A stretch of DNA of 64,000 nucleotides from an uncultured Anaerolineales bacterium (GTDB taxonomy: Bacteria > Chloroflexota > Anaerolineae > CG2-30-64-16), in NCBI GenBank assembly GCA_964387985.1, contig CAYLZG010000001.1, forward strand, positions 438 through 64,437, in the 5' to 3' direction. Position 1 is the stretch's first letter; every line of letters begins with the position of its first letter. A model generated the notes under the pieces. The model was given only the letters and a program-made list of their open reading frames with translations, was not told where the DNA came from and ran no database searches. The position numbers and the translations under genes are program-made. This document shows, piece by piece, positions 39,455 through 41,909 of the stretch.

Positions 39455-41185
39455 CTAGAGAGATGCGACCATATAGAGGTCGCCGCGCTTGAAGTCCTGG
39501 GCCCCGTAGTACCGGCGCGTGCCGATCGCCGAGATCACGGCCAGTCGATCGAAACCGGCCAGGCGCGTGCGCCGCTTTGCTTCCTCGATCAACTGGCGTC
39601 CAAGTCCTGAGTGCTGGGCTTCGCCAGCACTATCTGAACCAATGCTCAAGGCTGGGCCGTACACATGCACCTCGCGGATCATGGCTGCACCAGCGATTTC
39701 CGGCATGGCTGCCCACACTTCAGCAACTTCCGGTGGAATGGAGCCATCCTGCCTGAGATGGGGCAGTGACAGGCGCAAGAAGCCGGCCAGCCTGCCGCCT
39801 GTGGTTTCATAACTCATGAAGAGCTCGCGGGTCGTATCCGTGTCGTAACCATACTCGACCAGCACCAGTGATGGCTCGTCGAAATGCGTATCGCGTATCT
39901 CCCGGCAGCGGATGCAGGAGCAACGCCGCCCGGTCTGGCCGAGATGTTGCTGCACCAACTGCCTGAGATTGGAGCGTTTGCTGCCGGCCACAATATCATC
40001 GGCTGGGATGTCACGAAACACCCGGTTGACCCGGCAGTATGGAGGAATCGTTACCTTGCAATCTGCCACCAGAGCGACCAACTCATCATCCGTATAGGGT
40101 CTGAATTGACCGGCGTGCCACAAGTCATACAGGGCAGTGCCTTCGATGATGGAACACGGATAGATCTTGAGCTCATCAGGTCGAAACGCAGGGTCCGACC
40201 AAAGGCGGGCAAAATCCTCCCGATCCGATTCGGGCGTCGCGCCGAGCAGATTGGGCATCCAGTGCAGGTGCAGCTTGAACCCACCTGCGCGGAGCAACCG
40301 CACTGCGCGGCGCGCAGCAGCCACATCGTGTTCTCTCCGATTGAGAGCCAGGATGTGATCATCCAGGCTCTGAACCCCGATCTGGACCTTGGTCACGCCC
40401 AGCCGCCGCATGTGAGCAACCTCAGCCGGCGTCACCCAATCGGGGCGGGTCTCAACCACCAGGCCGACGTTGCGATGCACAGCGTGCTCGTTCTGGGCCT
40501 GCGTTGCCTGCAATGTTGGCCAGTCAACATCCTCAACGCCCGCGTCGCTATCGTCCTGAGGCGCTGTCTCTTGCGCCGCTTCGTTCATTGCCTGGAGACA
40601 ACGCTGCACAAACCATTGGCGATACTGCCTGGAGTAAGCGCTCCAGGTGCCGCCGAGAATCAGCAACTCCACCTTGTCAGCCGTGTGGCCCATTGCCTTG
40701 AATGTCGCAAGCCGGGTCATCACCTGCCGGTACGGATCAAAATCGCACTGAGCCGCACGGCGTGCACCGGGTTCATCCGGCAAATAGCTCTTGGGCATGC
40801 CCTCGGCGTCCGGACAGAAGATGCAATGCCCCGGACAGCCGGCAGGCCTGGTCAATACGGTGACGGGCGCCACACCAGATGAAGTCCGGACCGGCTTCAT
40901 CTGCAGGCGGCGCATGACATGCCGCTCGAAAGGCAGTTCTCCCGTCGATGTGAGCTGCTTGTAAGCATGAACAAGGTCGATCTTCGAATAGTACCCGTTC
41001 TCTCCCGCCTCCACCGAAGCCTTGTCGGCCCTCGGATGCTGTGCTAAGATGCGCGAGAGGCTGTGTCCGTCCCAGTGCTGTGCGCGACGCACGGCATCAA
41101 AGATCGACTCCAGCGTCTCTCGATGTTGCGCTACATCAAAATCGCGGCCCCGTGGCCGCCATGTCCGTCGAATGTTAGTATCCAT
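39455..41185 (-). CDS. elp3: Elongator subunit 3 homologue (radical SAM + GNAT/KAT): tRNA U34 carboxymethylation enzyme
   Basis: Radical-SAM cluster CPGHCIFCP. Elp3 blocks SYLPDEPGARRA, VGLVVETRPD, GVTKVQIGVQSLDD, FKLHLHWMPNL, DELKIYPCSIIEGTALY and RVNRVFRDIPADDIVAG. GNAT end IREVHVYG...QHSGLGRQLIEEA...VISAIGTRRYY. Confidence 0.9.
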   Translation of the reverse strand: MDTNIRRTWRPRGRDFDVAQHRETLESIFDAVRRAQHWDGHSLSRILAQHPRADKASVEAGENGYYSKIDLVHAYKQLTSTGELPFERHVMRRLQMKPVRTSSGVAPVTVLTRPAGCPGHCIFCPDAEGMPKSYLPDEPGARRAAQCDFDPYRQVMTRLATFKAMGHTADKVELLILGGTWSAYSRQYRQWFVQRCLQAMNEAAQETAPQDDSDAGVEDVDWPTLQATQAQNEHAVHRNVGLVVETRPDWVTPAEVAHMRRLGVTKVQIGVQSLDDHILALNRREHDVAAARRAVRLLRAGGFKLHLHWMPNLLGATPESDREDFARLWSDPAFRPDELKIYPCSIIEGTALYDLWHAGQFRPYTDDELVALVADCKVTIPPYCRVNRVFRDIPADDIVAGSKRSNLRQLVQQHLGQTGRRCSCIRCREIRDTHFDEPSLVLVEYGYDTDTTRELFMSYETTGGRLAGFLRLSLPHLRQDGSIPPEVAEVWAAMPEIAGAAMIREVHVYGPALSIGSDSAGEAQHSGLGRQLIEEAKRRTRLAGFDRLAVISAIGTRRYYGAQDFKRGDLYMVASL

Positions 41186-41909
41186 GCAACCTCAGACCGT
41201 CGCAGCGCTCTTGGCGCTGAATCAGCGGTTCTACGCCCGTTTCGCCGGCGACTTTGCCCGTACGCGGCGAACCTGGCCTCCGGGCTTCGACCGTATTCTA
41301 CCTTATCTGCAGACTGCTTCCAACGTATTGGATTTGGGCTGCGGGAATGCCCGGCTGCTCACTTTCCTGGGCGCGAGTAAGTGGCAAGGGCAGTATGACG
41401 GACTGGACAGCAGCGAAAACCTTCTCGTAGAGGCGCGTGCGGCCGCCCAGGCACACCCCCAGAACCCCGCGCACTTTATCGTCGCGGACCTGTATACGGA
41501 TAGCTGGCCCCAGGCCATGCGAGGCCCCTACGACGCGCTGGTCAGTCTCGCCGTCCTGCACCACATCCCAGGCGCCATGAACCGAAGGCACTTCCTGATG
41601 CAATGTGCGGACCTGCTCAGACCCGGTTGCCACCTGATCGTGTCGACCTGGCAGTTCATGACGTCTGAACGGTTGCGAAAGCGTATCGTGCCCTGGGAAG
41701 CAGCGGGGATCGCGGAGGCCGACGTAGAATCAGGCGATTACCTCATGGGCTGGGGAGAGGGTGCGCCAGGTCTCCGTTACTGCGCGTTCATCGATGAGCC
41801 TGAGCTGGTAGATATGGCAACCGAAGCGGGTCTGAGCTGCACTGAGACCTTCTTCTCCGATGGCCACGAGGGAAATCTGAATCTCTACGGGGTGTTTACC
41901 GCCAGGTGA
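41184..41909 (+). CDS. Class I SAM-dependent methyltransferase, Trm9-like
   Basis: FARTRRTWPPGFDRILPYL...VLDLGCGNARLL, ...YDALVSLAVLHHIPGAMNRRHFLMQCADLLRPGCHLIVSTWQF and the tail ...LRYCAFIDEPEL...NLNLYGVF parallel yeast Trm9 blocks as I recall them. The ATG at 41184 overlaps the elp3 ATG. A TTG at 41208 is an alternative start. Confidence 0.65.
   Translation: MQPQTVAALLALNQRFYARFAGDFARTRRTWPPGFDRILPYLQTASNVLDLGCGNARLLTFLGASKWQGQYDGLDSSENLLVEARAAAQAHPQNPAHFIVADLYTDSWPQAMRGPYDALVSLAVLHHIPGAMNRRHFLMQCADLLRPGCHLIVSTWQFMTSERLRKRIVPWEAAGIAEADVESGDYLMGWGEGAPGLRYCAFIDEPELVDMATEAGLSCTETFFSDGHEGNLNLYGVFTAR

Follow-up and report, generated by a model that had tools for sequence, protein, structure and literature searches.

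Can a bacterium make the wobble nucleoside 5-methoxycarbonylmethyluridine (mcm5U34) with an Elp3 and a Trm9-like enzyme of its own? The question is raised by a stretch of 64,000 nucleotides (nt) from an uncultured Anaerolineales bacterium (contig CAYLZG010000001.1; hereafter the window), in which an elp3 gene and the gene of a class I S-adenosylmethionine (SAM)-dependent methyltransferase lie head to head with overlapping start codons. Making mcm5U by way of Elongator and Trm9 is regarded as a trait of eukaryotes and archaea, and the formation of 5-carboxymethyluridine (cm5U34) is an established activity of the Elp3 family, documented in the literature for enzymes from archaea as well as bacteria. 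Judging from sequence comparison, we think it probable that the two window proteins form a two-step pathway giving mcm5U34. In the first step, Elp3 would use SAM and acetyl-CoA to add a carboxymethyl group to C5 of U34, as its strong homology suggests; in the second, the methyltransferase would pass the methyl group of SAM to the cm5 carboxylate, yielding mcm5U34 or, together with a thiolase, mcm5s2U34. We favor the methyl-ester step because the methyltransferase matches Trm9 over its full length and keeps the carboxylate site, because a second Trm9-like family (A3) occupies the same genomic slot, and because of the co-occurrence with Elp3 and the exclusion of MnmG. The genes and domains of the locus are as follows.

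39455–41185, minus strand: elp3, 576 amino acids (aa); open reading frame (ORF) list and TIGR01211 match
40232–40840, minus strand: radical-SAM domain of Elp3, residues ~116–318 (Pfam PF04055)
39941–40180, minus strand: Radical_SAM_C domain of Elp3, residues 336–415 (Pfam PF16199, 82.9 bits)
39458–39898, minus strand: C-terminal KAT (acetyl-CoA-binding) domain of Elp3, ~residues 430–576, including QHSGLGRQL
41183–41186: cATg, the divergent start codons overlapping by 2 nt, read from the sequence
41184–41909, plus strand: Trm9-like class I SAM methyltransferase, 241 aa, with its ATG at 41184

The minus-strand protein is a solid Elp3 assignment by homology. It scores 481.1 bits against NCBIfam TIGR01211 (cut-off 350), with a match that extends to residue 574, and its best solved structure is the Elp3 of Dehalococcoides mccartyi (DmcElp3, 5l7j; E 5e-102, residues 97–567), followed by the Methanocaldococcus infernus Elp3 (E 2e-99) and eukaryotic Elp3 chains (E ~1e-79). 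The cluster motif CPGHCIFC at residues 117–124 pairs with CPGKCIYC of DmcElp3, and AQHSGLGRQL in the KAT domain aligns with AQHRGLGRKL. An earlier note on this DNA, written from the sequence alone, had described a 576-aa Elp3 with radical-SAM and KAT blocks, and the TIGR01211 score and the two motifs shared with DmcElp3 bear this out. Like DmcElp3 (PDB 5L7J), the window protein is a bacterial Elp3 without the other Elongator subunits. Unlike DmcElp3, it carries an N-terminal extension of ~96 aa that lies outside the match and is rich in Arg and Lys (16 K/R in the first 96 residues); it corresponds in position to the N-terminal extensions described for archaeal and eukaryotic Elp3 (PMC6367351). 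In two other genomes Elp3 is interrupted. At L003:3325–4981 it is split into a 389-aa radical-SAM ORF and a 164-aa C-terminal (KAT) ORF, and at G011:C21:8982–10453 the Elp3 model matches fall in two pieces; each could reflect a frameshift, a sequencing error or a genuinely split gene.

Linkage to Elp3 and distribution of MnmG

The divergent elp3/methyltransferase pair recurs in three long metagenomic contigs at 55–68% identity. When one genome per prokaryotic species was scanned, 80 loci of the methyltransferase came up, mostly from Anaerolineae, Caldilineales and Ardenticatenales-type Chloroflexota, together with two Myxococcota, one Thermoanaerobaculia (Acidobacteriota) and one 'delta proteobacterium'. 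At 52 of the 80, all four from outside Chloroflexota among them, an Elp3 gene stands immediately upstream on the other strand; the remaining 28 genomes have no Elp3 gene next to the methyltransferase, and 26 of these encode Elp3 elsewhere. The gap between the two genes, estimated over the 52 loci, has a median of ~72 nt and is at most 150 nt in 41 of them.

The association is sharper when whole genomes are compared. We screened an even sample of 301 Chloroflexota genomes for Elp3, for the family profile of the window methyltransferase (A1) and for A3. Elp3 was found in 57 of them, and in 21 genomes of an even set of 61 (55 genera) from the class of the window organism, so that the earlier note's description of bacterial Elp3 as rare does not hold within Chloroflexota. 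A1 was found in 33 of the 301 at 177 bits or more, the next-best score being a generic methyltransferase match of 53 bits. All 33 A1 carriers are Elp3-positive and none of the 244 Elp3-negative genomes has A1 (Fisher 6.5e-29, uncorrected for phylogeny); in the class set, all 18 A1 carriers likewise have Elp3. Both genes are absent from three genomes of the same class. With A3 included, every Elp3-positive Chloroflexota genome carries one of the two methyltransferase families (33 with A1, 24 with A3), and neither occurs in any of the 244 Elp3-negative genomes. The earlier note had named co-occurrence of elp3 and this methyltransferase across bacteria as a check on its proposal, and the 33 Elp3-positive carriers and the 52 adjacent, divergent loci answer it in the affirmative.

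Clustering of elp3 with trm9 was already noted for Sulfolobus (PMC6144793). The Elp3/Trm9 cluster of the archaeon Sulfolobus solfataricus and the HVO_1032–Trm112 pair of Haloferax volcanii are prokaryotic cases of stand-alone Elp3 plus Trm9; the host in the present case is a bacterium.

The distribution of MnmG complements that of Elp3. In the class set, MnmG is present in 29 genomes and Elp3 in the 21 mentioned above, both occur together in none of the 61, and 11 have neither (Fisher 1e-8 for the exclusion, uncorrected for shared ancestry). A search for MnmG in the window genome gave no match above the cut-off. MnmE/MnmG, the bacterial xm5U34 pathway, acts on the same target, C5 of U34, in the same tRNA set, whereas its enzymes and chemistry are unrelated to those of the Elp3 module. 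The mutual exclusion is therefore what would be expected if C5 of U34 is modified by Elp3 and the methyltransferase instead of MnmE/MnmG, and we propose that the module replaces this usual route to xm5U34 in the lineage. The window genome has U34 in tRNAs for Lys(UUU), Glu(UUC), Gln(UUG) as well as Leu(UAA); split-box tRNAs such as these would be the likely substrates. The eleven class genomes with neither Elp3 nor MnmG are G149, G331, G338, G339, G340, G318, G356, G373, G379, G380 and G381, most of which are >94% complete.

Relation of the methyltransferase to Trm9

For comparison with Trm9, a profile of 22 aligned fungal (yeast) Trm9 sequences (A2) was used; these were fetched with a yeast sequence that served only as the probe, and the true Saccharomyces cerevisiae Trm9 (ScTrm9) is 85% identical to it. 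Profile-profile alignment of A1 with A2 by hhalign gave 98.0% probability and E 1.6e-13 over 211 columns, spanning the N-terminal helix to the last strands (query 19–248 of 260, template 23–284 of 288) at an identity of about 25%. The blocks F..TR..WP, D.GCGN, (S)LAVLHH...RR and the RY.. / E.N tail all fall on their yeast counterparts, motif I DLGCGNA pairing with DVGCGNG, so that the Trm9-like blocks that the earlier note had named are real. The extent of the alignment, rather than its score, sets the protein apart in its own genome: seven other methyltransferases of this genome, compared with the Trm9 profile as a control, reached 94–97.7% probability and covered only template columns ~17–158, and the window protein is the only one of the eight ORFs that aligns with Trm9 end to end. 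In phmmer against the PDB, Yarrowia Trm9 (5cm2_Z) was the second-best match (E 3e-5), reaching into the N-terminal TR..WP block. The Joint Genome Institute (JGI) pipeline labels many A1 members 'tRNA (uracil-5-)-methyltransferase TRM9'.

The active site points in part to the same relationship. Eight ScTrm9 mutants are known to lose function, R29A, D72A, H116A, W145A, W168A, R241A, Y243A and N271A (Letoquart et al. 2015, PMC4678810), and the same study proposed that R29, H116, R241 and Y18 hold the cm5 carboxylate while W145, H115 and N271 hold the uracil. In the profile-profile alignment, the window protein retains seven of these eight residues, as R28 (R29 in ScTrm9), D75 (D72), H127 (H116), W156 (W145), W171 (W168), R198 (R241) and N233 (N271), and Y17 and H126 correspond to Y18 and H115. 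Across 84 species-level A1 members, H127, W156 and R198 occur in all 84, Y17 and R28 in 83 with one gap each, position 75 is D or E, and position 171 is W in 76. Since Y17, R28, H127 and R198 are near-invariant, the constellation that would bind the carboxylate is conserved in A1.

A3 provides a second line of evidence. The 24 Elp3-positive Chloroflexota genomes without A1 are small (1–2.4 Mb), of Dehalococcoidia type, and have a short Elp3 of ~460 aa. Unlike the window, they pair it with this different Trm9-like family, a methyltransferase of ~215 aa that is the divergent neighbor of Elp3. A whole-genome search of the 301 found A3 in exactly these 24 and in no Elp3-negative genome, and it stands beside Elp3 in divergent orientation in 23 of the 24. 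Examples with the RYYHLF motif are L086–L089 and L091 (G151, G036, G049, G085 and G106), of which G049 is a 1.5-Mb single contig. In profile-profile comparison, A3 matches yeast Trm9 at 99.7% probability (E 1.8e-25, 30% identity), retaining the R, HH, W, W and exact RYYHL motifs of Trm9; against A1 the probability is 98.9% (E 1.8e-17). A divergent neighbor of A3 type is probably also present beside the D. mccartyi Elp3 whose structure has been studied. An exhaustive library profile search also brought up A3 relatives with names from DPANN archaea, named sequences being few; Elp3 and the methyltransferase stand head to head on a Nanoarchaeia-type contig as well, and a Woesearchaeota contig does not have this pair. 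A word-indexed search for archaeal or eukaryotic Trm9 that started from an A3 protein returned only close relatives among its best 120 matches. We think an archaeal origin likely for at least the Dehalococcoidia-type module.

Several results weigh against the assignment of the A1 methyltransferase to a Trm9-type pathway. The core-only hhalign scores of the other methyltransferases in the genome come near the 98.0% of this protein, and score similarity to Trm9 is therefore not specific. With a hidden Markov model (HMM) of yeast Trm9 in HMMER, the window ORF ranks fourth in its own genome (21.3 bits) and so is not the reciprocal best match of Trm9, although the three ORFs above it match over the core only and the test is weak because the Trm9 profile was built from fungal sequences alone. 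Trm9 comes at rank 15 in a family-profile search of the PDB and at rank 11 in a Foldseek search of the PDB with the AlphaFold2 model (mean predicted local distance difference test, pLDDT, 91.9), in which the best match is a Methanosarcina methyltransferase of unknown function; because the shared SAM-binding core dominates, sequence, profile and structure searches of the PDB do not discriminate. In a maximum-likelihood tree that combines A1 with the Dehalococcoidia-type family, with yeast Trm9 and with 11 further methyltransferases from this genome, each family is monophyletic with support of 98–100, but the deep nodes, and with them a clade uniting A1 with Trm9, are not resolved. At the active site, the essential Y243 is replaced by C200, and this position is C, V or A in the 84 A1 members and never aromatic; the N271-equivalent position 233 is Asn in only 58 of them. 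Finally, the Elp3-positive class genomes G336, G342 and G377 have no A1 match genome-wide and no Trm9-like gene within ~3 kb of Elp3.

Taken by similarity scores alone, homology to Trm9 is unproven, and we regard the methyltransferase as a plausible remote relative of Trm9. With Trm9–Trm112 of S. cerevisiae and Yarrowia lipolytica (PDB 5CM2) and with the ALKBH8 domain it shares the class I SAM fold and a collinear full-length profile match; it differs in being bacterial, in being very divergent from yeast Trm9 and devoid of the fungal insertion, and in that no Trm112 partner was identified for it. A bacterial analogy lies in CmoM, which converts 5-carboxymethoxyuridine (cmo5U) into its methyl ester (mcmo5U): the SAM-dependent methyl esterification of a U34 side-chain carboxylate is also the chemistry predicted for the window enzyme. 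No CmoM model is among the NCBIfam matches of the methyltransferase and no CmoM structure among the best 60 of its 103 PDB profile matches; CmoB, not CmoM, turns up weakly (22 bits).

The Trm112 question and other readings of the pair

The alternative that survives best holds that the methyltransferase needs a Trm112-like zinc-knuckle protein as its heterodimer partner in order to work, in which case the module would not be self-contained. We regard this as possible, if rather unlikely. Eukaryotic Trm9, that of yeast included, and Trm9 of H. volcanii require Trm112, and it is Trm9–Trm112 that makes mcm5U in H. volcanii (PMC6144793). The Trm112 domain (PF03966) is matched above the cut-off in 53 of the 61 class genomes, many of the matches being ORFs of 70–110 aa. 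In the window genome, whose assembly is 89% complete, PF03966 has no match above the cut-off. This cuts both ways: it removes the obvious candidate for such a heterodimer, and it sits badly with a Trm9-type enzyme in so far as the known ones depend on that partner. The conserved neighborhood of the elp3/methyltransferase pair likewise contains no Trm112-like gene. Two sub-threshold matches were considered as Trm112 and rejected, namely a 70-aa ORF on contig C136, which a NuoF-like gene overlaps from the other strand, and a zinc ribbon on contig C25, which lies inside a different, 422-aa methyltransferase ORF.

Because the assembly is 89% complete and most genomes of the class have a PF03966 match, independence from Trm112 is not established. 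The earlier note had proposed a two-step U34 module without Trm112; the linked Elp3/Trm9-like pair is supported by the profile match, the seven of eight residues, the co-occurrence and the MnmG exclusion, and the clause 'without Trm112' so far is not.

The C25 ORF deserves a remark of its own. Its 422 aa (G000, L093:910–2175, minus strand) comprise a class I methyltransferase, a CxxC...CxxC zinc ribbon that scores 20 bits to PF03966, and a C-terminal domain, and PF03966 matches of this kind are found in many ORFs of 300–360 aa in the class. Possibly the C25 ORF encodes a methyltransferase that carries a Trm112-like module of its own.

A second alternative accepts that the methyltransferase is tied to Elp3 and assigns it another chemistry, either methylation of another intermediate or side-chain atom that depends on Elp3, which would give an xm5U34 derivative other than mcm5U, or methylation of a neighboring nucleotide in the anticodon loop of the same tRNAs. 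Co-occurrence and adjacency show a functional link and not a reaction, A1 is only remotely similar to Trm9, and the substitution of the Y243 equivalent by Cys, Val or Ala and the variable N271 equivalent would fit such a change. Against it, the equivalents of R29, H116, R241, W145 and Y18, which are proposed to position the carboxylate and the uracil, are almost invariant in A1, and A3, the sister family with its full RYYHL motif and Trm9 match of E 1.8e-25, sits in the same genomic slot. We therefore judge another chemistry to be improbable, and prefer methyl esterification of cm5U34.

Least of all do we expect an unrelated small-molecule or protein enzyme (e.g. UbiE/UbiG-like) whose synteny was inherited without a functional link: it is true that the Pfam domains are generic (Methyltransf_23/12/25/11 only), that the best of 20 NCBIfam matches is UbiG (37.4 bits against a cut-off of 103), that the top structural and profile matches in the PDB are methyltransferases that act on small molecules or whose function is unknown and that some sources call the relatives 'UbiE', but all 20 NCBIfam matches lie far below their cut-offs, the co-occurrence with Elp3 is perfect in the 301 genomes, both genes are missing together from the three class genomes noted above, the pair is found in other phyla and on an archaeal contig, and even the non-adjacent cases are Elp3-positive in all but two genomes.

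Returning to the mcm5U34 pathway, a wider proposal would be that about a third of the class, and the Dehalococcoidia-type genomes, dropped MnmE/MnmG in favor of mcm5(s2)U34 made by a Trm112-free Elp3/Trm9-like pair with a remodeled active site (Tyr243 to Cys/Val); we put this forward tentatively, as it is in our view more doubtful than the two-step pathway itself. If true, bacteria would here, to our knowledge, show a wobble modification of mcm5U type for the first time, and the enzyme would be the first Trm9 that is independent of Trm112. We found no paper describing a bacterial Elp3/Trm9-like module, the kind being known from eukaryotes and archaea, and a 2017 review stated that bacterial homologues of the methyltransferases that partner Trm112 could not be detected (PMC5372719). 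The module thus predicts mcm5U34 in bacteria, a modification for which we found no bacterial report. The prediction would be directly testable in D. mccartyi, which is cultured and whose Elp3 structure is solved. A minimal Trm9 of about 215–240 aa, possibly partner-free, would also be of use for structural and mechanistic work, and the replacement of MnmE/MnmG would show cleanly how a core pathway that tunes translation can undergo non-orthologous displacement.

The start-codon junction and flanking genes

In the plus-strand sequence agtatccATGcaacc, the CAT at 41183–41185 is the start codon of Elp3 and the ATG at 41184–41186 that of the methyltransferase. The two share two bases, so there is no intergenic region between the genes. 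The plus-strand frame of the methyltransferase is open upstream as far as a TTG at 41022, and 34 homologues start at a Met matching the ATG at 41184; we take 41184 as the start because the homologues begin there. The CATG overlap recurs in five further species-level genomes of the closest clade (L003, L006, L007, L010 and L011), and this recurrence, together with the shared start Met, indicates that the overlap is not an annotation accident. The divergent arrangement with overlapping ATGs had been read in the same way, and at the same place, in the earlier note.

The sequence elements around the junction are listed below.

41173–41181, plus strand: TGTTAGTAT, the extended −10-like element of the earlier note, 2 nt before the methyltransferase ATG
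41190–41193, minus strand: GAGG, Shine-Dalgarno-like (putative function), 4 nt upstream of the Elp3 ATG and inside methyltransferase codons 3–4
41295–41323, minus strand: sigma-70-like match TTGGAA-17-TAGAAT (pattern only), within the coding sequence of the methyltransferase and ~110 nt upstream from the ATG of Elp3
41144–41159, minus strand: GC-rich hairpin with a T-rich tail behind it (GCGGCCACGGGGCCGC GATTTTGATG), a pattern match inside Elp3 codons ~9–17, a short way downstream of the Elp3 start

The element TGTTAGTAT had been taken as a hint that the methyltransferase starts downstream, at an in-frame TTG placed at 41208. The triplet at 41208 is CTC, and the TTG is codon 10, at 41211–41213. 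The element itself is the antisense of Elp3 codons 2–5 (D-T-N-I), and the other genomes that share the CATG overlap do not conserve it. We therefore rejected it as a promoter and consider it incidental, and it gives no reason to move the start; a downstream start was rejected as well, as the homologues begin at the ATG.

In the head-to-head layout, the transcription signals of each gene would lie inside or right beside the other gene, and the expression of both should therefore be coupled. The sigma-70-like pattern on the minus strand was the only site in a scan of the region, against 0.1 in shuffled sequences. As it lies inside the methyltransferase gene, an Elp3 leader transcribed from it would run antisense to the 5′ part of that gene. 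Where the gap is 14 nt, in three relatives, a perfect TATAAT precedes the methyltransferase ATG by 6–7 nt, a spacing that suggests a leaderless methyltransferase mRNA in these genomes. In one metatranscriptome, a 717-nt contig spans the start-codon junction (40903–41619) without mismatches; as a Logan contig it carries no strand information and may include DNA, so that transcript ends are not placeable from it.

The genes on either side of the pair are a small YtxH-family gene (39120–39365, minus strand), downstream of elp3, and a LysM gene (41896–43023, minus strand) that is convergent with the methyltransferase gene and overlaps its end by 14 nt. Both are syntenic in the relatives L001–L003, and more distant genomes give no sign that they belong to the module. 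In relative L001, the neighborhood includes, downstream of the YtxH gene, a called gene of 62 aa that matches Pfam Rdx (SelW-like), at L001:1504–1692; the syntenic place in the window is 38704–38958, and the window genome also encodes tRNA-Sec. Sequence nearly identical to that of the window was found in many metagenomes from anaerobic digesters, bioreactors, manure and sludge, from which we conclude that the organism is common in anaerobic digesters.

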